From NCBI GenBank assembly GCA_018675975.1, contig JABGXB010000003.1, positions 267,821-331,820 of the forward strand: a stretch of 64,000 nucleotides of DNA, written 5' to 3'. This document shows, piece after piece, positions 1 to 62,942 of the stretch. This stretch comes from Candidatus Woesearchaeota archaeon. GTDB lineage: Archaea > Nanobdellota > Nanobdellia > Woesearchaeales > JABGXB01. The notes below the pieces were generated by a model. That model saw nothing but the letters and a program-made list of their open reading frames with translations. It did not search any database and was not told the DNA's origin. The number at the start of each line of letters is the position of its first letter. Within the stretch, counting starts at the first letter, position 1. Position numbers and translations under genes: made by a program.

Positions 1-117
1 AATTAAAAAAGAAATATTGACTTTAAAAATAATTATATTCTTAAAACTAAATTAATAGAATTATTTGATTTTTAAAATATAAAAAAAACTTATAAATTCC
101 ACACTAAATCAACAAAT

Positions 118-345
118 ATGATTACAATAGAAGAAATTAAAAATAAATTAGAAAACAGTATGCCTAATGCAATAATTGAAATAAGTAACCCACAAGAAGA
201 TGGAAGACATTTTTTTGCAAAAATAATATGGGATGAATTTGAAAACAAAACATTAGTTGAGCAACATCAATTTGTTTATGAAATTTTAAAAGAAGAAATG
301 AAAGAACAAATACACGCATTAGGATTGGACACTAAATCAAAATAA
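118..345 (+). CDS. bolA: BolA family protein
   Basis: 75 aa; DGRHF...QHQFVYEIL...IHALGLDT matches the BolA signature (HF..S..F.G...RH..VY..L...IHAL); immediately upstream of a CGFS glutaredoxin (classic BolA-Grx pairing). Confidence 0.8.
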   Translation: MITIEEIKNKLENSMPNAIIEISNPQEDGRHFFAKIIWDEFENKTLVEQHQFVYEILKEEMKEQIHALGLDTKSK

Positions 346-357
346 AAGGTTAAAAAA

Positions 358-666
358 ATGGATGAACAAGTTAAAACAAAAATTGAAGAATTAATTAAAT
401 CTAAAAAAGTATTTTTATTTATGAAAGGAACACCTGAAGAACCAGACTGTGGATTTTCAGCAAGAGTAATAGAAGTATTAAATCATTTTAATATAGAGTA
501 TTTAAGTTTTGATATATTAGAAAATGAAGAAATTAGACAAGGAATAAAAGAATATTCAAATTGGCCAACAATCCCACAATTATACATTGATGGAAAGTTT
601 GTAGGCGGTTGTGATATTATTGAAGAAATGGCAAGAAGTGGAGAATTATCTAAACTATTAAATTAA
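358..666 (+). CDS. grxD: monothiol glutaredoxin (CGFS type)
   Basis: 102 aa; active site CGFS in KGTPEEPDCGFSARV; C-terminal TIPQLYIDGKFVGGCDI glutaredoxin fold motif. Confidence 0.85.
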   Translation: MDEQVKTKIEELIKSKKVFLFMKGTPEEPDCGFSARVIEVLNHFNIEYLSFDILENEEIRQGIKEYSNWPTIPQLYIDGKFVGGCDIIEEMARSGELSKLLN

Positions 667-715
667 TATTTTAAAGTCAATAAATCTTTATAATTAAATT
701 ATGTCTTAATTTCAT

Positions 716-1189
716 ATGGATATTCTTTGGAAAAACTTATTTAAAAAAAGAAACAATAATTCAATTAGTACAATTATAAAAAATGTCGATTTATTTAATG
801 AATTATCAAAAAAACAAATAAAAGAAATAATTAATTTAGGTCATGTTAGAAACTATAAAGAAAATGAAATCATATTTAATAAAAATGAACAAAGTTTTGG
901 AATGTTTATCATATTAAAAGGTCAAGTTGAGATTTATATAAATAAAAATAATAAAAAACAAATAATTGACAATTATAAACAATCAGAATATTTTGGAGAA
1001 ATCTCATTAATTGATAAAAATATAAGAAAAGTAAATGCAATAGCAAAAAAAGAAACAAAATTGTTTTATGTTTTTGGAGAAGATTTTAAAGAACTATTAA
1101 ACAAAAATAAAGATATTTCAATATTATTCTATAAAAATCTTACAAAAAATTTAATTGAAAAATTAAATTATCTGGAAAAATTATTATGA
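716..1189 (+). CDS. cyclic-nucleotide-binding (CAP effector-like) domain protein
   Basis: 157 aa; FGMFIILKGQVEIY ... FGEISLIDKNIRKVNAIAKKETKL matches the cNMP-binding beta-roll/phosphate-binding cassette pattern; stop overlaps the start of the next gene by 4 nt. Confidence 0.6.
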   Translation: MDILWKNLFKKRNNNSISTIIKNVDLFNELSKKQIKEIINLGHVRNYKENEIIFNKNEQSFGMFIILKGQVEIYINKNNKKQIIDNYKQSEYFGEISLIDKNIRKVNAIAKKETKLFYVFGEDFKELLNKNKDISILFYKNLTKNLIEKLNYLEKLL

Positions 1190-2244
1190 ATCCTATAAAT
1201 TTAAATAAAAAAATATGGTTAAATTTATTTTTAATTTTAGTCTTTATAACAATATTAGGATATATTTTTTTTCAATTTATTTCAATATTTGGATATGTAT
1301 TAATAGGGGTAATATTAAGTTATATATTAAATCCAATTGTAAAAAAAGTTGAAGCATTAGGATTTTCTAAAAAACATGCATTTAGTATAATAATTACAAT
1401 AAGTTTAATATTCATAATTACTGCAATGACAATTGCAATTCCTTTAATAAATCAAGAAGTTAATTCTCTCTCTAATAAATGGCCAGAAATAAAATCCAAA
1501 ATTAATAATCAAATTCTAACTGAAAAAATAAATAATAAAAATGAATCTACATATTATTTTCCACTATTAAATATTGAAATTGCTAAAAGTAATATAGATG
1601 GATTTTTATTAGATTATTCTTCACAAATAAATATATTTGCAAAAAATTTAATTTCAGTAATATTTAAATTAATTTTAATAGTACCAATTGTAACATATTT
1701 TTTAATCATAAAAAGAAGAAAAATCAAAAAGAAAATATTTCAATTAATTCCAAATAAATATTTTGAAATTATTTTTGCAATGGTAAAAGAAATAAATAAA
1801 TCCATTGAAAATTATATTTCAGCAAAAATAATTCAAGCAGTTATAATTTCAGTTTCAGCTAGTATTGGTTTTATAATAATAAATTTAAATTTTCCAATAT
1901 TTTTAGGAATATTTGTAGGTCTTGCAAATATCATACCTTATATTGGACCATTAATTGGAGCTATACCAGCAATACTTATTGCATATTTATTTTTTGATAC
2001 AAAAATAATTATATTTGTCTTAATTTTATTATTAATCGTACAATTAATTGACAATTTTATAATTCAACCAATAATATTACCAAAATTAGTTAATGAACAT
2101 CCAATTGTAGTTATAGTTATTACATTAATTGGAGCAGAATTATTTGGCCCATTAGGGATGATTATGGCATTGCCAATTTTTATAATAATTAAAATAATAT
2201 TATTAAAAAGTTATATTGCTCTAGACTTCTTATATTCTAAATAA
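1186..2244 (+). CDS. AI-2E family (PerM/UPF0118) membrane transporter
   Basis: 352 aa, polytopic; conserved GLANIIPYIGPLIGAIPAILIA motif typical of the AI-2E family. Confidence 0.7.
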   Translation: MNPINLNKKIWLNLFLILVFITILGYIFFQFISIFGYVLIGVILSYILNPIVKKVEALGFSKKHAFSIIITISLIFIITAMTIAIPLINQEVNSLSNKWPEIKSKINNQILTEKINNKNESTYYFPLLNIEIAKSNIDGFLLDYSSQINIFAKNLISVIFKLILIVPIVTYFLIIKRRKIKKKIFQLIPNKYFEIIFAMVKEINKSIENYISAKIIQAVIISVSASIGFIIINLNFPIFLGIFVGLANIIPYIGPLIGAIPAILIAYLFFDTKIIIFVLILLLIVQLIDNFIIQPIILPKLVNEHPIVVIVITLIGAELFGPLGMIMALPIFIIIKIILLKSYIALDFLYSK

Positions 2245-2303
2245 TAAATTAAAAGTACTTGATTAAATAAAAACTTATAAATAATTTAACAATTAATTTT
2301 TAT

Positions 2304-2582
2304 ATGGGAGATAAATGGTATAATTCAGGCATTTCAAATTATATAAGTCAAGGCGTAGCATATTCTTTAATATTTGGAACTCTAATATTAGGAGGCGGTT
2401 CTTGTTACAGACAAAATGTAATTGCAGAAGCCGAGGCTGAAAGAATTAAAAGTGGAAGTTATATTATCCGTCAGGGTGACTTTAATAAAAACGGTAAAAG
2501 AGAAGAATTTATTGAAATAAGAAATAAAAAGTTTTTCTCAATGATTGATGGAATAGATTTAGAATCAAAATTAAAAGAATAA
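2304..2582 (+). CDS. hypothetical small protein (N-terminal TM helix), encoded inside an insert flanked by duplicated gene-end sequence
   Basis: 92 aa ORF; locally higher GC than surroundings; flanked by 2171..2244 and its copy at 2598..2672. Confidence 0.4.
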   Translation: MGDKWYNSGISNYISQGVAYSLIFGTLILGGGSCYRQNVIAEAEAERIKSGSYIIRQGDFNKNGKREEFIEIRNKKFFSMIDGIDLESKLKE

Positions 2583-2597
2583 AACTTTTAATTTTAC

Positions 2598-2672
2598 TGC
2601 CAATTTTTATAATAATTAAAATCATACTATTAAAAAGTTATATCGCCCTAGACTTCTTATATTCTAAATAAA
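2598..2672 (+). repeat. about 74-bp direct repeat copying the 3' end (last 24 codons plus stop) of the AI-2E gene at 2171..2244
   Basis: Aligned by eye: 4 mismatches in about 74 bp, all four synonymous with respect to the original reading frame. Confidence 0.8.
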
Positions 2673-2744
2673 AAAATATTATTTTTTAATTGCTTCAAAA
2701 CTAATATCACATGGTTGTTCAAATCTATTAATTAAATAGGGATA

Positions 2745-3734
2745 CTATTCATCTAATGATTCAACATCAGAAATACGTTCAGTTTCTAAAAAAATACTAT
2801 GCTTATCTTTACCATATTTACCATAAAAACCTTTAGTATTTTTTATGAGTTCAAATGACATTGGGTCTGCATCATTTACTTTATTTTCCTTAAAAAACAC
2901 ATTTTTTTTATCTTTAGCAAAAAAACCACCCACAACTTGAAATGTTTCACTATCTGCTTCCGAAATTAAATTCGAATAACTATAAACATGATTTTTATCT
3001 TTTGCATACCCATATTCTAAAACTTCAAAAGTTTTTATATCTGCATTTGACAATATGTTATCATAATGATAAATTCCAAAATATTTTTTATTAAACCCTT
3101 CTGAAAGTTCAATACCAAAACTAAAATTTATATTTAAAAAATATATCACTATAAATAAAATAGTTAATCCAAAAATTATTTTTTTAATATTTTTTTCTTT
3201 AATTAAGATTTCACCTAGATTTTTGATAAAAAAAGATGATATTGCATTTGCAATTATAAATATAAGTAAAATAAAAATAGGTCCAAGAACAAGTATTATA
3301 GGTCCAAGAACAAACATTAAAGCACCAAGATTAATTAATGAAAGTTTAATTAATCTTTCAATTATCGTATTTTGAAAATAAATAGATAATATCATGGCCA
3401 TAATCATTATAAATAAAAAAAATATCATTACCCTAGAAAAAAATAATTTCAAAGATGTTTTGATTTTTTTTTTTTCATCAAAAGGAACATCTTGTAATCT
3501 ATATGCTTGGTATATACTAACAAAGATAATAATAAAAAATGCAATTCCAACAACTAAATTATGTAAACCCGCTTCATAAGGAGTTCCAAAAAAAGTCCCA
3601 TATAATAAATCAAAAAAAACAATAATAACTACAATTATTAATCCAACAATTAATCCTTGTGAAAAAATATTTAAATTTTTAAAATATATCAAATTAGAAT
3701 TTTTTTGTAATTTAGAATTATTAACTTGATCCAT
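2745..3734 (-). CDS. membrane protein with C-terminal DKNYY-like repeats
   Basis: 329 aa; several TM helices followed by repeated YAKDKNHVYY / FAKDKKNVFF / YGKDKHSIF units resembling the DKNYY repeat family. Confidence 0.5.
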   Translation of the reverse strand: MDQVNNSKLQKNSNLIYFKNLNIFSQGLIVGLIIVVIIVFFDLLYGTFFGTPYEAGLHNLVVGIAFFIIIFVSIYQAYRLQDVPFDEKKKIKTSLKLFFSRVMIFFLFIMIMAMILSIYFQNTIIERLIKLSLINLGALMFVLGPIILVLGPIFILLIFIIANAISSFFIKNLGEILIKEKNIKKIIFGLTILFIVIYFLNINFSFGIELSEGFNKKYFGIYHYDNILSNADIKTFEVLEYGYAKDKNHVYSYSNLISEADSETFQVVGGFFAKDKKNVFFKENKVNDADPMSFELIKNTKGFYGKYGKDKHSIFLETERISDVESLDE

Positions 3735-3923
3735 AATATTAAAAACTAAATTAGATTATATAAAGCTAATCAAAAAAAATAGAGTATCACCCACAATAAT
3801 TAATAAATGGTTATTTTTTTTATGAATTCTTTTTAATTTTTTATTATTAAATAAATTACTATAAAAAGAAATATTGTTGATAAAATAAACCCACAATTAA
3901 ATAATCTGTTTTACAAATATTAA

Positions 3924-4442
3924 TTATAAATTATTAATTGGAACCTCTAATATGATGAGTTCTAATTTTTTATTCTCCGGTTGAGAATTTTTTCTATTAA
4001 AATGTACTAGAGTTTTCTTATTCGTAGTTTCTCGAAATCCCATTTTTTTAAAATAATTTAATGAAACTTCATTCCTAGAAGAAATTTGCTCATATATAGC
4101 CTTTAAATTTGAATATTTATTTTTTAAGTCATTAACAATTAAATCAATTACTTTTTTAGAAATACCTTTGTTTTGGTGTTCTGGTAATAAGCCATGAAAT
4201 CTAATCCCTGCGTTTTCAGTATCATCGATTTTAAACAAATAGTAACCCGTTATACCTATTACCTCGTGATTGTCTCTAATAAAATAATTCATACCATTTT
4301 TTTCTTTTATCCAAGTATCAAAAGATGCCTCAATATCTACATAATATTCTGGCTCAAAAATTTGTTTTGCTACATCCATATATTTATGTCTATTGCCAGA
4401 ATTAATCTCCTCGATATTAATTTTCATAATCTTATAATTCAA
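3924..4442 (-). CDS. GNAT family N-acetyltransferase
   Basis: 172 aa; acetyl-CoA-binding-like motif HQNKGISKKVIDLIV..., typical GNAT length and layout. Confidence 0.6.
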   Translation of the reverse strand: MNYKIMKINIEEINSGNRHKYMDVAKQIFEPEYYVDIEASFDTWIKEKNGMNYFIRDNHEVIGITGYYLFKIDDTENAGIRFHGLLPEHQNKGISKKVIDLIVNDLKNKYSNLKAIYEQISSRNEVSLNYFKKMGFRETTNKKTLVHFNRKNSQPENKKLELIILEVPINNL

Positions 4443-4588
4443 TATATTCTTATAAACATTAGCATAAATAAATAGACCTTCATTTATTGCTTTTTCTCCT
4501 TTTTAGAATTTAAATTTATCTATTATCTAAAACGAAAAATAAATAATTCTTGAAAAGCCTTATAAATAATAAGTAAACTATAGTTAAC

Positions 4589-4969
4589 ATGGAGCTATTA
4601 TTACCACAAGAAGTAGAAGTACATTATATTATTCCAACTATTAGAAAATATTTTGCACATTATTTAAATCAAAATGGAATGAACCAAACTGAAATTTCTA
4701 AAATTTTTGGAATTACAAAATCTGCAGTATCACAATATTTTAGTAAAAAACGTGGAAATAAAATTACATTTCAAAAAGATTTTGTAAAAGAAATAGAAAT
4801 TGCAACAAAACAAATCACAGATAAATATACTTTTATGTATCAAATGCAAAAATTATTATTAAAATTGAAAAATGATTATTCAATTTGTACAATTCATGAA
4901 CAAATTAATCCAAATTTAAATAATTGTAATCCAGAATTGGTTGGATGCCACTTTAGAAAAACAAAATGA
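4589..4969 (+). CDS. HTH transcriptional regulator with Cys/His cluster, leading the suf operon
   Basis: 126 aa; helix-turn-helix TEISKIFGITKSAVSQYF; C-terminal C..H....C....C.H cluster; stop overlaps the sufB start by 4 nt. Confidence 0.5.
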   Translation: MELLLPQEVEVHYIIPTIRKYFAHYLNQNGMNQTEISKIFGITKSAVSQYFSKKRGNKITFQKDFVKEIEIATKQITDKYTFMYQMQKLLLKLKNDYSICTIHEQINPNLNNCNPELVGCHFRKTK

Positions 4970-6360
4970 GTAAATTAGATTTTGAACCGAATAGAGAAGT
5001 TTATGATAAAAAAGTAAATTTCAAAAAGAATATTGAAACTTCACCTGGACTAAGTGAAGATATTGTTAGATTAATCTCTAAACAAAAAGAAGAACCTGAA
5101 TGGATGTTAAAAAAAAGATTAGAAGCATTAGAATTATTTGAAAAAACAGAATTACCAAAATGGGGACCGAGTTTAGATATTCTAGATTTTGATCAAATTA
5201 AATTTTATGTTGATCCTAATACAAAAGAAACAAATTCTTGGGATGAAGTACCAGATGAAATAAAAGAAACATTTGAAAGATTAGGAATACCAGAAGCAGA
5301 AAGAAAAGGTTTAGCTGGAGTTGGTGCACAATTTGATAGTTCAATGGTTTATCATAATTTAGAAAAAGCATTAAAAGATAAAGGTGTGATTTTTGAAAAT
5401 ATGGATGTTGCAGTAAAAAAATATCCTGAATTAGTAAAAAAATATTTTATGAAACAATGTATTCCAATAAATGATCATAAGTTTATTATGTTACATGCAG
5501 CAGTATGGTCTGGTGGAACTTTTATTTATGTTCCAGAAAATACAAAAGTGGAATTACCATTACAAGCATATTTTAGAATGAATGAAATTATGGGTGGACA
5601 ATTTGAACATACTTTAATTATTTTAGAAAAAAATGCAGAATTACATTATATTGAAGGATGTAGTTCACCAAAATATTCAAAACAATCATTACATGCAGGT
5701 TGTGTTGAAATAATTGTAAATGAAGGAGCAAAGATGCGTTATTCATCAATAGAGAATTGGTCAAAAAATGTATACAACCTAAACACAAAAAGAGCAATTG
5801 TACATAAAAATGCAAAAATTAATTGGGTTAATGGAAATATGGGAAGTTGTAAAACAATGTTATACCCATGTAGTATATTAATTGGAGAAGGGGCAAGTTC
5901 AGATAATTTAGGAATTGCTTTCGCTGGTAAAAATCAAGATCAAGATACGGGAAGCAAAGTTATTCATGCTGCTAAAAATACAAGTTCTACAATAAAAGCA
6001 AAAAGTATTAGTAATTTTGGAGGAATTTCAAGTTATAGAGGACTAGTTGAAGTTAATAAAAATGCAATTAATACTAAAAGTAGTGTAGAGTGTGATGCGT
6101 TAATTATAGATGATAAATCAAGTTCAAACACATACCCGTTTATGAAAATTAATAATAATAAAATAAATATTTCTCACGAAGCAAGTGTTGGTAAAATAGG
6201 CGATGAACAAATTTATTATTTAATGTCAAGAGGATTATCTAAAGAACAAGCAATTCAATTAATTGTTGGTGGATTTATTGAACCGATTAGTAAACAATTA
6301 CCATTAGAATATGCAATTGAATTAAATAAATTAATTGAATTAGAAATTGAAGGTATGTAA
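4966..6360 (+). CDS. sufB: Fe-S cluster assembly protein SufB
   Basis: 464 aa; HYIEGCSSPKYS and the conserved C-terminal beta-helix region (GDEQIYYLMSRGL) typical of SufB. Confidence 0.9.
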   Translation: MSKLDFEPNREVYDKKVNFKKNIETSPGLSEDIVRLISKQKEEPEWMLKKRLEALELFEKTELPKWGPSLDILDFDQIKFYVDPNTKETNSWDEVPDEIKETFERLGIPEAERKGLAGVGAQFDSSMVYHNLEKALKDKGVIFENMDVAVKKYPELVKKYFMKQCIPINDHKFIMLHAAVWSGGTFIYVPENTKVELPLQAYFRMNEIMGGQFEHTLIILEKNAELHYIEGCSSPKYSKQSLHAGCVEIIVNEGAKMRYSSIENWSKNVYNLNTKRAIVHKNAKINWVNGNMGSCKTMLYPCSILIGEGASSDNLGIAFAGKNQDQDTGSKVIHAAKNTSSTIKAKSISNFGGISSYRGLVEVNKNAINTKSSVECDALIIDDKSSSNTYPFMKINNNKINISHEASVGKIGDEQIYYLMSRGLSKEQAIQLIVGGFIEPISKQLPLEYAIELNKLIELEIEGM

Positions 6361-9696: not shown

Positions 9697-9775
9697 AAAT
9701 GTAGTGGTTAAATTTCAAATTTATGTTTAATTATTTAAACTGTCGTTGGTTAAATCAATAAATGTAGTGGTTAAA
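9697..9775. repeat. direct repeats aaatgtagtggttaaa (9697..9712 and 9760..9775) plus a degenerate third copy cgttggttaaa (about 9743..9753)
   Basis: 16-bp exact direct repeat read in the sufT / tRNA-Met intergenic region; relatively GC-rich for this genome. Confidence 0.6.
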
Positions 9776-9873
9776 AATAAAATATATTTTTTATTAATGT
9801 AATTATCGTTAAATAAAGAAGTAAATATAGAAATTAAAAGAATATTTGAATCATCATAAATTTATATAATAAA

Positions 9874-9948
9874 TAGCGGAGGAAGGATTTGAACCTTCGA
9901 CCTTCGGGTTATGAGCCCGATGAGCACTCCAGACTGCTCCACCCCGCT
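9874..9948 (-). tRNA. tRNA-Met (CAT), archaeal initiator-like (A1:U72, AGCGGGG acceptor)
   Basis: Reverse complement folds as a cloverleaf: acceptor agcgggg/ctccgct, anticodon loop ctCATaa, T-arm gaagg ttcaaat ccttc; no encoded CCA. Confidence 0.8.
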
Positions 9949-10148
9949 ATAATTCTCAGACTTATTAACTATTTATAAAGATTTCTTTGATATTATTTTT
10001 TTTCTATTAAATAATATTCATTCATATTAAAAGATTAAACTCCACACATAAAAAGATTTCAATAAAACAAAATAGAATTGAAAAGTTTTCAATTACATTG
10101 AAATGTTTTTTAACAAGTTTATTTTAAACTAAATGTGTATATGAATTT

Positions 10149-33604: not shown

Positions 33605-36600
33605 ATGGAACAAAGTATTGAAACAAAACGAACTGGTATAAAAGTTAAAAAAGTTTTTTGTAGTGATAATATAAGCCCATTTGAAACTGTTGAATTTGAA
33701 AACAGATCAAGTGTGATAAAAAATAGAGATGGTTCTATATTATTTGAAATAAATAATATTCATGCTCCAAAAAAATGGTCGCAAGTTGCCGTAGATATAA
33801 TGGCACAAAAATATTTTAGAAAAAGTGGAGTTCCACAATATGATGAAAATCAAAATGAAATTAAAGATGAATTTTCAAATATAATTACAGGTTCAGAAAC
33901 AGATATTACTCAACCAATAAAAAGATTAACTGGATGTTGGAGACATTGGGGAGAAAAATATAATTATTTTGATACGCAACAAGATGCAATTAATTTTGAA
34001 CAAGAAATACAATATATGTTATTACATCAAATCGCTGCACCAAATAGTCCACAATGGTTTAATACGGGACTTAAATGGGCATATAATATTTCTGGAAGTG
34101 CACAAGGACATTATTATGCTGAACATGAAACAGGTGAAATTAAATTATCTGAGGATGCATATTCAAGACCTCAACCGCATGCATGTGCGGATTATTATAC
34201 ACAAGTGTATACTGATAAGGGTACAATGTATATTGGAGATATAGTTGAAAATAATTTAACTAATATAAAAGTATTTGATGGAGAAAAATATGTAAAAGTT
34301 CTTGCAATCAAAAACAATGGAAAAAAAGAAGTGTTTAAAATTCAATTAAAAAATGGAAATTATATTAAATTAACTCAAGATCATTTAGTGCTATCATCAC
34401 AAAAAAGAAAAAAAAATGGTGGAAATTATAACTGGAATTATGTAAAAGATGTAAAATTAGGTCACAAATTACAACAACCATTAATTCTAGATATTAAAGA
34501 AAAAAATGTATTTAGTGATGATTTAGCAAAAGCAAGATTAGCCGGTTGGATAGTTGGAGACGGATCAGTTGGAATTTATGAAAATGTAATGAGATTGGAA
34601 ATTATTTCTATTAAAGAAGAAGAATTTGAATCAATAATAAATGATATTCAAGAAGTATTTGGACAAGAAGTTAATTTTTGGATTAGTAAATTTAAAACAA
34701 AAAACGAAAATTTAGATGGTAAAAGAATTCATTTAGCAGGTAAAAAAATACATAAATTAATTGAAGACTATGATTTACTAAAATCTTCATTTAATGCAGA
34801 AGTACCTCAAAAAATAATTAATGGGTCACCACAAGAAAAAAGAGAATTTTTAAAAGCCTTATTTCAAGCAGATGGTTGTGTCAGAATTAGAAAAGATGAA
34901 AATAGAAATTCAGGAGATGTGTGTTTAACTACAATTTCAGAAAATCTTTCATTTGGAGTTTTACAATTATTAAATTCATTAGGTATTTATTGTAGAATTA
35001 ATAAATATAGTGATAAAAGAGAAAATCGAAAAGATGTTAATCAAGTTATAGTATCTTATGGTAGTGCAAGAGAACAATTTCAAGAACAAATTTCTTTTAT
35101 ATGTTCTCAAAAAACCGAAAAATTAGAATTATTAAATAAAATTATAACAAAATCAAAAACACTTCCATTAATAAGAGAAGAAACAATTATTTCAATTGAA
35201 TCTGAAGGCATTAAAGATGTTTATGATATTCAAACAGAATCTTCAAAATTTCTTGGAAATGGAATTGTAATACATAATTGTTTTATTCAATCAGTTAAAG
35301 ATGATTTAGTTAATCAAGGTGGAATATTTGACCTTTGTACAAGAGAGGCAAGAATATTTAAATATGGTTCTGGAACTGGTTCAAATTTTTCACAATTAAG
35401 AGGTCAGTCTGAAAAATTATCAGGTGGTGGAAGATCTTCAGGTATGATGTCATTTTTAAAAATATTTGATGTGGCAGCTGGAGCAATTAAATCAGGTGGT
35501 ACAACAAGACGTGCAGCAAAAATGGTTTGTCTTGATTTGGATCATCCAGAAATTATTGAATTTATTGATTGGAAAGCAAATGAAGAAAAAAAAGTTGCTA
35601 ATTTAATTACTGGTTCAAAAAATTCAAAATATCATTTACAAAAAATATTAAAAGAAGCAAGTTCAAATTCAAATATAGAAAAAAATCCAAAATTAAAATC
35701 AGCAATTAAAGAAGCTATTGAACAAAATATTTCTTTAAATTATATTGATAGAGTTTTAAAACTTGCAAATCAAGGAATAACTGAATTTGAAACTCCCGAG
35801 TTTGATAATCATTTTGAAGGTGAAGCATATTCTACAGTTAGTGGACAAAATTCAAATAATTCAATAAGAATACCAAATTCATTTTATGAAGCTGTTCATA
35901 AAGACTTAGATTGGAATTTAAAAAATAGAACTGATGGAAAAATTTCAAAAACTGTAAGAGCAAAATGGCTTTATGATAAAATTGGACAAGCTGCTTGGGC
36001 TTGTGCAGATCCTGGTGTTCAATTTGATACGACAATTAATGAATGGCATACATGTCCAAAAGATGGAAGAATTAATGCAAGTAATCCTTGTTCTGAATAT
36101 ATGTTTTTAGATGATACTGCATGTAATTTAGCTAGTATTAATTTAATTCATTTTATTAATGATAGTGGACATTTTAATGAAGAAAAATTTGCTCATGCAT
36201 GTGAACTTATGACAATTGTTTTGGAAATTTCAGTTACTATGGCTCAATTTCCAAGTGATGAAATTGCAAAAAGAAGTTGGGAATATAGAACATTAGGTTT
36301 AGGTTTTGCAAATTTAGGGACATTACTCATGGTTAAAGGAATTTCTTATGATAGTGATGAAGCTAGAAGTATAGCTGGAGGAATTAGTGCCATAATGTGT
36401 GGAACTGCTTATGAAACATCTGCTAAACTCGCAAAACATCTAGGACCTTTTAACAGATATGAACATAATAAAGATGACATGTTAAGAGTTATTAGAAATC
36501 ATAGACGTGCTGCATATAATGTTTCAAATGAAGAGTATGAAAAATTAGAAATTACTCCAGTTGGCATTGATGAAAATTTATGTCCAAATAATATTTTACA

Positions 36601-38146
36601 AAAAGCTAGAAATTCATGGGATAATGCACTTGAACTTGGACAAGAATATGGATTTAGAAATGCACAAGTAACTGTTATTGCACCAACCGGAACTATTGGA
36701 CTTTTAATGGATTGTGATACTACAGGAGTTGAGCCAGACTTTGCAATTGTTAAATATAAAAAACTTGCAGGCGGTGGTTATTTTAAAATTGTAAATCATT
36801 CAGTTATTAAAGCATTGAGAACTTTAGGTTATGAAAAAGATCAAATTATTGATATTAAAAAATATTGTATAGGTCATCAAACATTAGTGGGTTGTCCAAC
36901 CATAAATCATAAAATTTTAAAAGATAAAGGATTTGATGAAGAAAAATTAGAACTTATTGAAAAACAATTAGAAACTGCATTTGATTTGAGTTTTGTTATG
37001 AATAAAAATATTTTAAGTGAAGAATTTTTAAAAAAATTAGGATTTAGTGATGAACAATTAAATTCTGAAATGTTTGATTTACTAGAAGAATTAAAATTTA
37101 CAAAAGAACAAGTTGATATTGCAAATGAATATGTTTTTGGAACAATGACAGTTGAAGATGCTCCATACTTATTAGAAGAACATTATTCAGTTTTTGATTG
37201 TGCAAATAAATGTGGAAAAAAAGGTAATAGATATATTGACACTTATGGACATATTAATATGATGGCAGCAGTTCAACCTTTTATTTCTGGTGCAATTAGT
37301 AAAACAATTAATATGGATTCAGAAGTTAGTGTTAAAGATATTTTAGATGCTTATGAAGCTAGTTGGAAATTAATGCTTAAAGCAAATGCATTATATAGAG
37401 ATGGATGTAAATTAAGTCAACCATTAAATACTGCTGTTTTTGAAAGTGAATACAATTTAAATTTATCTGAAGAAGATATTGATGAAACAGTTGATTCAGC
37501 AGCAATTCAACAACAAATTCAAACAATGAAAGCAAATCAGTTGCCGAGAAAAAGAGGTGGTTTTGTTCAAGAAGCAACTGTTGCAGGTCACAAAATATAT
37601 TTAAGAACTGGTGAATATAATGACGGAAAATTAGGTGAAATTTTTATTGACATGTATAAGGAAGGTGCTGCCTTTAAAGCACTAATAAATTGTTTTGCAG
37701 TTGCAATAAGTAAATCTCTACAATTTGGTGTTCCTTTAGAAGAATTTGTTGAACAGTTTACATTTACTAGATTTGAACCGGCAGGTTTAGTAACTGGACA
37801 TGAATATATTAAAAATTCTACGTCAATATTAGATTATGTATTTCGTGTTCTAGGCTATGAATATTTAGGTAGAGATGATTTAATTCATGTAAAACCTAAA
37901 AGAAAACCACTAGACATTATAGAACATGAAGATGATCCAAGAGATAAACATAAAACACTAGATAGTTTTTCTAATAGAAAAAATGTAGAAGAGACTAGAA
38001 ACGAAATGCTTTTTAAAAAAATTAATACTGCCAAATCAAGAGGATATACTGGAGAAGCATGTGGTTCTTGTGGTAGTATGAGAGTAAAAAGAAATGGAAG
38101 TTGTACACTTTGTGAAGATTGTGGTTCTACTAGTGGTTGCAGTTAG
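33605..38146 (+). CDS. nrdJ: ribonucleotide reductase, class II-like (adenosylcobalamin-dependent NrdJ type), containing one intein
   Basis: 1513-aa precursor; N-terminal [21 protein letters not shown] (class II WSQ..A.DI...KYF motif), active-site [22 protein letters not shown]-terminal Cys-rich zinc-ribbon tail; no nrdB nearby. Confidence 0.85.
34184..35278 (+). mobile_element. intein (365 aa) with LAGLIDADG homing endonuclease domain inserted in nrdJ
   Basis: Starts with Cys (PQPHA|CADYYTQVY), ends IVIHN followed by the +1 Cys (|CFIQSV); two LAGLIDADG blocks [11 protein letters not shown] and [11 protein letters not shown]; extein junction restores a contiguous PHACFIQS. Confidence 0.8.
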
Positions 38147-60375: not shown

Positions 60376-61878
60376 TTATTTAAATGAATAAGGATCAGCT
60401 AATTTTAAAAAATTATTAATTTGATTTAATTTAATGTTTGTATATGAATATACTCTAAATAGAATTTCATTTTTTTTAACTTTATCATTTTGTTTTTTTA
60501 ATAAATAAACACCACATCCTTTATGACTTGGAGCTCCAGCCATTTTTGCAATTTTACTTATAATTTTATTATCAATTTGTTTTACAATACCAGATTTATT
60601 TGATTTAACTTCATATATACATTTTGATAATTTATTTTTTAAATTATTAGTGCCATTTATTTTTTTCCCACCTTGTGCCACAATTATTTCATTAAATTTA
60701 TCAAATGCTTTATTAGAATATAAAATGTCACGAGCTACAATTTCACCTTGACCTTTTTTATATAAACCACCAAGCTCTAACATATTACCAGCTAATTTAA
60801 TACTTTTATCAATTAAATCTTTTAAATGATCATGTTGATTTTTTAATACATCATAAACATCGATTGCCTCTAAAACGGGACCCAAACCACAACCAATTGG
60901 ATTTTTTCCATCAGTTAAAACAGCATGAACATTTAGTCCAATTGAATGTCCTACTTTTTCAAAATCAGATTTTAATGAAAGTGCGTCTTTTTTTGAGCTT
61001 ATTTTAGAACCCATCCCATAAGGAATATCAATTAATACTTTATTACTACTAACACTTCTTTTTTTGGATAAAACTGAAGCTATTAATTGACCTCTTGGAT
61101 CTAAAGAAAGAGGATGTTCAACATTAATTATTATATCATCTGCAGGAGCTAAATCTAAAGCCCCACCCCATGTAATACATGCACCAGTTTTTTTTACAAC
61201 TTTTTTCATTTTAGAAATATCTAAATCTACATTAGTAAAAACTTCAAATGTATCTGCAGTACCAGCAGGAGATGTAATTGAACGTGAAGAAGTTTTAGGA
61301 ACTACATAACCTGCAACTGCTAATATTGGAACAACAATCATTGTAGTTCTATTTCCAGCAACACCACCTATACAATGCTTATCAATCACATTTTTAGAAC
61401 CAAATTTAATTATTTTACCAGTTTCAACCATGGATTTAGTTAATGCAATTGTTTCATCTAAATTTAAAGGATTACAATAACAAGCACTAACAAAATATGT
61501 AATTTCAACTTCAGTTAATATATTGTCTTTTATATCATTAATAATTTTTGTAAATTGATCTTTATTTAATCTTTCACCTTGTAATTTCTTTTTAATATAA
61601 TTTAATGTAATAGGTTCATTAATGTGAAATAATCTAACAATATCATTATGTTTTAAATTTAATTTTTCTCTTACTTCATCTAATACACCAACTTGGCCAT
61701 TTTTTAAAAAATCCGAATCAATTATATCAACCATAGCAATAAGTTCTTTTTTATTAAATCTAATACCCATTCTACTTTTTGGAGGAATATTTAATTTTGC
61801 ACAATCATATTTAGTTAAATATACTACTAAAGGACCACCAGTTTTAATTTTAATTTTTTTTATTTTAAAGTACATCAT
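60376..61878 (-). CDS. AMP phosphorylase (archaeal DeoA-like, thymidine phosphorylase family)
   Basis: 500 aa; pyrimidine-nucleoside phosphorylase core (HCIGGVAGNRTTMIVVPILAVAG ... TSSRSITSPAGTADTFEV) plus the roughly 80-aa N-terminal domain typical of archaeal AMP phosphorylase. Confidence 0.7.
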   Translation of the reverse strand: MMYFKIKKIKIKTGGPLVVYLTKYDCAKLNIPPKSRMGIRFNKKELIAMVDIIDSDFLKNGQVGVLDEVREKLNLKHNDIVRLFHINEPITLNYIKKKLQGERLNKDQFTKIINDIKDNILTEVEITYFVSACYCNPLNLDETIALTKSMVETGKIIKFGSKNVIDKHCIGGVAGNRTTMIVVPILAVAGYVVPKTSSRSITSPAGTADTFEVFTNVDLDISKMKKVVKKTGACITWGGALDLAPADDIIINVEHPLSLDPRGQLIASVLSKKRSVSSNKVLIDIPYGMGSKISSKKDALSLKSDFEKVGHSIGLNVHAVLTDGKNPIGCGLGPVLEAIDVYDVLKNQHDHLKDLIDKSIKLAGNMLELGGLYKKGQGEIVARDILYSNKAFDKFNEIIVAQGGKKINGTNNLKNKLSKCIYEVKSNKSGIVKQIDNKIISKIAKMAGAPSHKGCGVYLLKKQNDKVKKNEILFRVYSYTNIKLNQINNFLKLADPYSFK

Positions 61879-62942
61879 TTTCCATTTGCTTTATTCATTT
61901 TAAAATAAATTTTCATTAAGTTATAGGTAATAATTACAATAAACGGACCTATTATCAAACCACTTAGTCCAAAAATTGAAAGACCACCTAATACACCTAA
62001 AATAATAAAGTATACATCAATTAAAACTAAGTTTGCCATTACTTTTGGTTTTATTATATTATCAATAGAACCAACAATAACACCACCTATGAAAATAATG
62101 ATTGCATCTGAAAAATATGGAATTCCTGTTGACATACCAAATAAAACTTTAAAAATTAAAAGTGGCATCCAAATAAGACCCGTACCCAAAAAAGGAATTG
62201 ATCCTAAAAGACCAGTTAAAATACCAAACACTATGGGGTATTCTATATTTGCTAAATAATAAGCAAAACCTGCAATAATTGCCTGTATAAATGCAGTTAA
62301 TAAAAATCCAAATGTAAAACCTTTTAATAAATTATGAAATTCCTTAAACAAGTTTTTAGTATCTTTTGAATTTAATGGACTCAATTTACATATTGCCTTA
62401 TAAATTTCTAATTTTTTTGATAAAAAATACCACATTGATAAAAATGTTAAAAATAAAAATAACATTAAATCTGGAAGTAATAATATAAATTTTGAAAATA
62501 TATTAAATGAATTTTCTAAAAATCCTGAACCACTTTTATTTTTTGAATTAAATATATCAGACAAATACCTTTGTGCAGTAATATCATCTCTTAAAGCATC
62601 AAATTTAATAACAATATCACATAAAAAATCTCCTTCACAAGTTGTTATTTCCCCTCTAGCATATTTTTGAATTGTATTAATTGAATTATCAATTTTAAAA
62701 AAAAATGATTGTGTAATAAAATAAATTATTAATAATATAATAAAAATTGTTAAAAATGTAATAAATGCAGATCTATAATCTTTATCTTTAATGAAAGTAA
62801 ATCTATCTTGAAGTGGACTAAAAATAAAAGTTAAAAATGCACCAAAAACTATAGCAGCTAAAAAACTTGAAAATAGCCAAATTGAAAGAACTAAAAATAC
62901 AATCAAAAGTAAATTTACAGATTTTTTTCTATCGATATTCAC
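61875..62942 (-). CDS. AI-2E family (PerM/UPF0118) membrane transporter, second paralog
   Basis: 355 aa; GILTGLLGSIPFLGTGLIWMP family motif; its stop overlaps the AMP phosphorylase start by 4 nt. Confidence 0.65.
   Translation of the reverse strand: MNIDRKKSVNLLLIVFLVLSIWLFSSFLAAIVFGAFLTFIFSPLQDRFTFIKDKDYRSAFITFLTIFIILLIIYFITQSFFFKIDNSINTIQKYARGEITTCEGDFLCDIVIKFDALRDDITAQRYLSDIFNSKNKSGSGFLENSFNIFSKFILLLPDLMLFLFLTFLSMWYFLSKKLEIYKAICKLSPLNSKDTKNLFKEFHNLLKGFTFGFLLTAFIQAIIAGFAYYLANIEYPIVFGILTGLLGSIPFLGTGLIWMPLLIFKVLFGMSTGIPYFSDAIIIFIGGVIVGSIDNIIKPKVMANLVLIDVYFIILGVLGGLSIFGLSGLIIGPFIVIITYNLMKIYFKMNKANGK

Follow-up and report, generated by a model that had tools for sequence, protein, structure and literature searches.

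In Escherichia coli, the presence of the element e14 in the icd gene leaves behind the pseudogene icdC, and the two gene ends differ mostly by synonymous changes (PMC13626634). Foreign DNA can also be integrated by homology-facilitated illegitimate recombination, which uses a one-sided anchor, according to the passage on this process in PMC6382021 that cites de Vries and Wackernagel 2002. Here we describe a locus that partly resembles these systems. In a stretch of 64,000 nucleotides of a Candidatus Woesearchaeota archaeon (GenBank assembly GCA_018675975.1, contig JABGXB010000003.1, positions 267,821 to 331,820; hereafter the window), the 3' end of a gene encoding an AI-2E family transporter is present twice, once in frame (copy a) and once displaced (copy a'), and the two copies are separated by a small insert with a single open reading frame (ORF) of 92 amino acids, designated ORF92. 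The structure is probably a fixed recombination scar between two diverged Woesearchaeota lineages and not an active mobile element, and the locus is best seen as one more case of an already known kind, in which recombination at a variable site has left behind a pseudogene of a gene end.

As in the case of e14 or phage 21 in icd, the locus has an intact 3' end on one side of the insert and a pseudogene copy on the far side, and recombination between the two ends would restore a single functional gene. The differences are that e14 is approximately 15 kb long, carries its own recombinase, shows SOS-induced excision and supplies the in-frame gene end, whereas the insert described here has 353 bp, one gene of cellular type and no recombinase, and the in-frame end seems, by composition, to be the native one. 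The direct repeat flanking the insert and the sorting of alleles around a crossover are also features of Campbell-type single-crossover integration, known from suicide plasmids, but this would need a 427-bp circular intermediate of chromosomal donor DNA, which is hypothetical here. Integron gene cassettes have also been reported in archaeal metagenome-assembled genomes. The unit of approximately 0.4 kb, with one small ORF followed by a palindrome, is similar to such cassettes; however, the attC core (RYYYAAC...GTTRRRY) is absent from the palindrome at 2567-2595, which is A/T-only apart from one G-C pair, no integron IntI, attI or cassette array was found in the window, and integrons do not duplicate a 75-nt target. 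The abrupt left edge of the repeat and the diverged allele of a' resemble what the account in PMC6382021 gives for homology-facilitated illegitimate recombination in Acinetobacter, Streptococcus pneumoniae and Pseudomonas stutzeri; that account concerns naturally transformable bacteria, and the mechanism is not known from archaea of the DPANN group (Diapherotrites, Parvarchaeota, Aenigmarchaeota, Nanoarchaeota and Nanohaloarchaeota).

Structure of the duplicated gene end

The end of the transporter gene at 2170-2244, comprising 24 codons and the stop codon, is duplicated at 2597-2671, at an offset of 427 nt. The comparison of 2171-2244 with 2598-2671 revealed 4 mismatches, at positions 2196, 2200, 2217 and 2220, and a fifth mismatch (2170/2597) appears when the first codon is completed, TTG versus CTG, both of which encode Leu. 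The identity of the two copies is 70/75 (93-95% depending on the extent compared), which is far above chance, and the exact blocks they share are 25, 3, 16, 2 and 24 nt long; no other repeat of such quality is present in the 64-kb window. Every mismatch is synonymous in the transporter frame, with T or A in copy a and C in copy a'. Copy a encodes the C-terminal motif KSYxALDxxYS[RK] conserved in the family, while the allele sequence of a' includes CTGCCAATTTTTATAATAATTAAAATCATACTATTAAAAAGTTATATCGCC and terminates with TAA at 2669-2671. An earlier note on this DNA, made from the sequence alone, had described the repeat with its four substitutions, their synonymous nature and the stop codon of the downstream copy, all of which proved correct, except that the copy ends at 2671 and the end given there, 2672, was one base too long.

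Homology appears to continue past the stop codons. The 35 nt that follow them (2245-2279 and 2672-2706) are identical at 22/35 positions (63%), compared with an average of 14/35 (~40%) for AT-rich 35-mers of the window (P ~0.0045), so the homologous unit probably comprises ~109 nt, as was given by the repeat search. To the left of the repeat, the identity is at chance level (11/31), and this edge is abrupt and lies inside the last transmembrane helix. The insert at 2245-2597 consists of a 59-nt spacer with a guanine plus cytosine (GC) content of 8.5%, ORF92 and a hairpin. The hairpin at 2567-2595, which lies directly to the left of the presumed illegitimate joint, is a possible end of the ORF92 transcript.

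Divergence and coding status of the two copies

Copy a' is a gene-end fossil. It is untranslatable at present, because an in-frame TAA (2588-2590) lies just upstream and there is no ATG, GTG or TTG start in frame; it is also not joined to ORF92, which is in another frame with two stops between them. Between the two copies, no change was found at ~56.7 non-synonymous sites and 4-5 changes were found at ~15.3 synonymous sites, which corresponds to a proportion of synonymous differences (pS) of 0.26-0.33 and to 0.32-0.43 substitutions per synonymous site (dS). The chance of obtaining synonymous differences only is 0.0004-0.027, depending on the mutation model. The homologous non-coding flanks differ at 13/35 positions (0.37), similarly to the synonymous sites, and divergence is far lower in the coding repeat than in the flank (5/75 versus 13/35, Fisher P = 1.4e-4).

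Since the synonymous difference is close to that of the flank and the non-synonymous difference is zero, both copies appear to have been under purifying selection. The simplest reading is that each was the end of a working gene in a lineage of its own throughout practically all of their divergence, in which case a' would have lost its function only recently. The suggestion that the downstream copy was, or is, translated as a gene end can thus be kept for the past, to which the synonymous-only divergence points, and not for the present, given the in-frame TAA and the missing start codon.

Composition

The window has a GC content of 23.4%, compared with 24.9% for the insert and 29% for ORF92. 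The GC enrichment of the insert that had been described previously is therefore seen in ORF92 alone and not in the 353 bp as a whole. The GC content at third codon positions (GC3) of the window genes has a mean of 0.091 and a standard deviation of 0.028, and that of the transporter gene is 0.071. In a', 6 of the 24 third positions are G or C (P(GC3 >= 6) = 0.006-0.018), a value reached by no 24-codon window of the transporter gene. The GC3 of ORF92 is 0.161 (15/93, P = 0.02) and is exceeded in only 2 of 51 long ORFs of the window; when a' and ORF92 are pooled, GC3 amounts to 21/117 (P = 0.002). These values suggest, as a lean and not as a result, that a relative with a slightly lower AT content was the source of a' and perhaps of ORF92, and that the in-frame end is native. 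A native in-frame end would be the opposite of the replacement gene end supplied by an element that the earlier note had envisaged.

Comparative genomics of the locus

The gene content of the window is archaeal (GatD/GatE, CDC48, Spt5-NGN/KOW and NMD3). No relatives of the transporter with an identity between ~99% and 49% were found among 5.8 billion proteins; alignment-based scans of genome contigs gave only distant relatives with at most 43% identity, and the scan with the single protein gave nothing. The closest syntenic lineage, whose transporter (P0003) is 48% identical at the amino acid level and whose loci (L171-L175) have 29% GC, shows the gene order BolA - Grx - (311 aa) - cNMP-binding (cyclic-nucleotide-binding) - transporter - HTH (helix-turn-helix) - SufB. 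Its HTH and SufB proteins are 46% and 67% identical to those of the window, and the distance after the transporter stop is ~60-80 nt (60 nt in L175). In the window, the interval between the same borders has ~2.3 kb and contains ORF92 (+), a', a DKNYY-domain gene (-) and a GNAT gene (-). DNA was evidently inserted at the 3' end of the transporter gene, because in the closest relative the transporter runs straight into HTH-SufB. In more distant relatives, the overlapping cNMP-binding/transporter pair is all that is retained, and the genes downstream differ in each of them, which makes the 3' end of the transporter gene the left boundary of a small variable interval. The DKNYY and GNAT genes were possibly acquired.

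The arrangement recurs in ten Logan/ENA contigs (L001-L010, some of which are the same record), which are 99.6-100% identical and differ by sporadic single-nucleotide polymorphisms or homopolymer indels; the variants L008-L010 and L186 are uninformative. The proteins of the locus are also encoded on a contig of 1.03 Mb (1,029,883 bp). The contigs probably come from several Saanich Inlet samples, and one of the samples is a Saanich Inlet oxygen-minimum-zone metagenome (PRJNA247822). There is no hint of a variant lacking ORF92, because ORF92 and the transporter gave the same counts of collection blocks in which contigs of 10 kb or more occur (7, 2, 8, 6 and 1). The empty site with a single gene end that might be expected in related genomes was not found among the sampled, near-identical contigs, all of which are occupied, and the population looks clonal at this locus.

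Search for mobile-element features

The proposal that an integrative element had inserted into the 3' end of the gene did not find support, as the 353-bp insert has one gene, no recombinase and no sign of mobility. Domains of recombinases or transposases were found neither in the insert nor in the 45 scanned window ORFs of at least 120 aa; Pfam matches identified three more window ORFs as SufB, SufD and an aminotransferase. ORF92, the sole gene of the insert, has no Pfam or PHROG match, and inverted repeats linking the ends of the insert were not found. An insertion sequence does not fit either, as the repeat is 75-109 nt long and diverged, and terminal inverted repeats and a transposase are lacking. 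The comparison of ORF92 and the insert with mobile-element data, suggested in the earlier note, yielded no match in PHROGs, viral contigs, a phage DNA collection or a plasmid tblastn search, and in the sequence searches the insert was not found at any other site.

The Rfam scan of positions 1-6000 gave only a sub-threshold chance match to a CRISPR-DR model (5016-5039), and no significant structure was found in or around a'. The scan for promoters and terminators stayed at chance level with bacterial models, the host being an archaeon. A duplicated gene end was found in 0/152 other AI-2E loci, so the transporter end is not a recurrent attachment site. The second AI-2E paralogue of the window (61875..62942) was rejected as a source of a', since it is 29% identical and has an unrelated C-terminus.

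Origin of the duplicated gene end

We infer a two-lineage origin, a foreign copy and a recombination route as follows. Two diverged lineages would both have possessed the cNMP-binding/AI-2E transporter pair with different genes downstream of it, and DNA of the donor lineage would have entered the other lineage and been joined to its chromosome by one homologous exchange and one illegitimate joint. Both would be required because the repeat of diverged alleles has one abrupt non-homologous edge. The illegitimate joint would lie between 2596 and 2597, just past the hairpin of ORF92 and in the middle of the donor transporter gene. In one possible route (a), a donor fragment of ~427 bp containing a', its 3' flank and ORF92 would circularise at this joint, and one crossover within 2221-2244, a block of 24 nt that is identical in both copies, would place the donor flank and ORF92 behind the native end and the donor a' ahead of the native flank. 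In the other (b), homology-facilitated illegitimate recombination would integrate a donor block a'-DKNYY-GNAT anchored on the right in HTH/SufB, with its left side joined illegitimately behind a resident ORF92. By either route, the in-frame copy a would keep the transporter intact and a' would be a by-product, a pseudogene fragment. A scar of this kind is supported by the position at which strong identity ends, namely the stop codon, beyond which two lineages that carry different genes would no longer be alike; the 75 nt shared at 93%, the 35-nt flank at 63% and the left side without homology agree with it. Further support comes from the synonymous-only divergence, the composition of a' and ORF92, the variability of the interval among relatives, the lack of mobile-element hallmarks and the uniform arrangement in all contigs sampled.

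Several points weigh against this interpretation. No donor lineage was found, and the two-lineage origin is deduced from 75-109 nt only. The homology of the flanks is only moderately significant (P ~0.0045), 24 and 93 codons are the basis of the argument from composition, and the polarity of the event (insertion versus loss) rests on one relative with 48% identity. The contigs may stem from one site, Saanich Inlet, which makes the missing empty site weak evidence. Routes (a) and (b) fit equally well, and to our knowledge no DPANN archaeon has been shown to use either of them.

The strongest competing explanation is a site-specific integrative element like e14 in icd, reduced to a remnant or a minimal form. 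Its attachment region would have included a copy of the transporter 3' end, the repeats would be attL and attR, and either the integrase and other cargo would have been lost later or an integrase from another part of the 1-Mb genome would act in trans. The layout is the same, with an intact end, a displaced C-terminal pseudogene and mostly synonymous differences (PMC13626634), direct repeats of the target 3' end with 93-95% identity flank the insert, and a core site could lie within the two longest exact blocks (25 and 24 nt). We nevertheless consider such an element unlikely, because the insert of 353 bp contains a single gene whose relatives are chromosomal and not associated with elements, no recombinase is present in it or in the scanned window ORFs, and phage, plasmid or viral matches, an empty site or a polymorphism, and duplicated ends in the 152 other AI-2E loci were all missing; composition, although of 24 codons only, suggests that the displaced copy is the foreign one. 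It is also improbable that the 427-bp unit of gene end and ORF92 acts as a minimal cassette, with one gene and no recombinase, that moves between Woesearchaeota lineages. Such a cassette would use the conserved 3' end of a core gene as a homology handle or as the attachment site of an integrase acting in trans, and could also be lost again by pop-out; if true, it would represent a cassette-style route for the exchange of flexible genes in the ultra-small genomes of DPANN archaea.

The absence of decay in a' would agree with its being kept for a function, either as a pop-out handle that makes ORF92 an on/off cassette, since recombination between the 75-nt repeats would drop ORF92 and leave the transporter protein unchanged, or as a signal in RNA or DNA, for instance a terminator or a regulatory site that it has in common with the gene end. 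A recent event accounts equally well for the lack of decay, no contig without ORF92 was seen, and no Rfam match or significant structure was found in or around a', which leaves a functional role with a small probability. A tandem or segmental duplication in place, within one lineage and with later divergence of the two gene ends, would be the simplest source of a direct repeat, and the lack of a known donor lineage is in its favour. In that case, the untranslated copy should carry most of the changes and at any codon position, yet no non-synonymous change is seen. There are 32 opportunities for G/C-to-A/T changes in the unconstrained copy versus 13 synonymous ones in the constrained copy, and divergence after duplication is disfavoured because all five changes would have hit the constrained copy with a probability of (13/45)^5, or ~0.002, with a range of about 0.002-0.007. 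If, conversely, a' was the derived copy, all of the differences would oppose the AT bias of the genome. The much lower divergence of the coding part than of the flank (P = 1.4e-4) also argues against this explanation, as does the fact that a tandem duplication of copy a with the insert would double ORF92, of which there is no second copy; we regard it as very improbable. An assembly artefact, that is, a chimera joining two strain variants of the gene end, might be proposed as the copies resemble two alleles. It can practically be dismissed, because different pipelines arrived independently at the arrangement in several samples and on contigs of up to 1.03 Mb, and the longest exact block, 25 nt, is below the k-mer sizes typically used in assembly.

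If the recombination scar is the right explanation, 109 nt trace an exchange of DNA between two diverged lineages of a DPANN archaeon that is uncultured, depends on a host and has a ~1-Mb genome with 23% GC, in a group where gene flow and the mechanisms of recombination are poorly documented. No new mechanism is shown by it, as comparable gene-end pseudogenes are known in bacteria (icd/icdC).

ORF92 and its protein family

The coding score of ORF92 is positive only in its own frame and falls inside the range of the window genes, by which measure ORF92 is a real gene. The exhaustive HMMER search (phmmer) with its product found 23 representatives at E <= 1e-3 (E from 1e-12 to 1e-3), most of which have 84-112 aa and 33-48% identity; the family spans roughly 84-121 aa, and the family profile search retrieved 21 proteins. 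A word-indexed search had returned only copies with 99-100% identity, and the resulting view of ORF92 as an ORFan was overturned by the exhaustive search. Hits in giant repeat proteins, such as one of 5,043 aa (P0078), were discounted as homologues, as these proteins share only the D-x-N-x-N-G loop, which in P0078 lies within the repeats.

The family is characterised by an N-terminal KWYNS motif, a hydrophobic helix, usually a Cys, and the motifs DLNxNGxxEEF and YFSxIDGKNLE, and the residues D59, N61, F78, D82 and G83 are invariant in its alignment. In the AlphaFold model of ORF92, a long helix (10-49) that probably anchors the protein in the membrane is accompanied by a unit of three beta-strands and one short helix, for which the predicted local distance difference test (pLDDT) values are 80-91 over residues 51-90; the C-terminal beta-domain bears the D-x-N-x-N-G loop. 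The fold search with this model against the PDB gave no match with E < 1, and Pfam contains no model for the family.

In DPANN-type contigs, the relatives of ORF92 adjoin ribosomal-protein, gyrase or housekeeping genes at unrelated chromosomal sites, and no adjacent AI-2E transporter, integrase or flanking direct repeats were found at their loci. ORF92 thus appears to be a normal cellular gene whose product is small and anchored in the membrane, and its analysis reveals, as an incidental find, an undescribed family of small membrane-anchored proteins. The family loci L178-L183 lie in low-GC archaeal contigs of the DPANN type, and in L180 a distant second copy of the family (101 aa, E = 0.015) follows the first.

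Neighbouring genes and other observations

The features of the locus and its neighbourhood are listed in Table 1.

Table 1. Features of the duplicated gene end and the surrounding genes; coordinates refer to the window.
Feature	Coordinates	Strand	Evidence or remark
cNMP-binding-domain gene	716..1189	+	4-nt overlap (ATGA) with the transporter start
AI-2E family transporter (PerM-like), 352 aa	1186..2244	+	Pfam PF01594, E = 1e-57
Copy a, functional transporter end, LPIFIIIKIILLKSYIALDFLYSK followed by stop	2170..2244	+	GC3 3/24, genome-typical
3' flank of copy a	2245..2279	+	Weak homology to 2672-2706
ORF92, small protein with a probable membrane anchor	2304..2582	+	Positive coding score, HMMER family
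Perfect 11-bp A/T hairpin over the ORF92 stop, T-rich run after it	2567..2595	+	Folding free energy (dG) -6.2 kcal/mol, z = -2.1, weak
Copy a', untranslated fossil gene end, same 24 aa and stop	2597..2671	+	GC3 6/24, genome-atypical
3' flank of copy a'	2672..2706	+	Weak homology to 2245-2279
DKNYY-domain membrane protein, convergent with the transporter	2745..3734	-	Pfam PF13644; absent from the closest relative's interval
GNAT acetyltransferase	3924..4442	-	GC3 0.208, top of 51 window ORFs; absent from the closest relative's interval
HTH regulator	4589..4969	+	Conserved right border of the interval
SufB	4966..6360	+	Conserved right border of the interval

The pair of the cNMP-binding gene and the transporter gene is kept in every relative examined (37-49% amino acid identity; L091, L171-L176 and L184), which suggests that the two form a cyclic-nucleotide-regulated transporter module. 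Four contigs of the closest lineage (L171-L174), assembled independently from different runs, all end ~201 nt past the transporter stop, inside the HTH gene; this common end point may reflect strain variation or a repeat there.

The second AI-2E paralogue, located at 61875..62942 on the minus strand, encodes 355 aa, is 29% identical over a partial length and adjoins tRNA-Val and tRNA-Ser. The class II ribonucleotide reductase gene (33605..38146, +; 1,513 aa) contains an intein with a LAGLIDADG homing-endonuclease domain. At 9697-9822, two tandem units of 63 nt that are 73% identical lie beside tRNA-Met (9873..9949, -).

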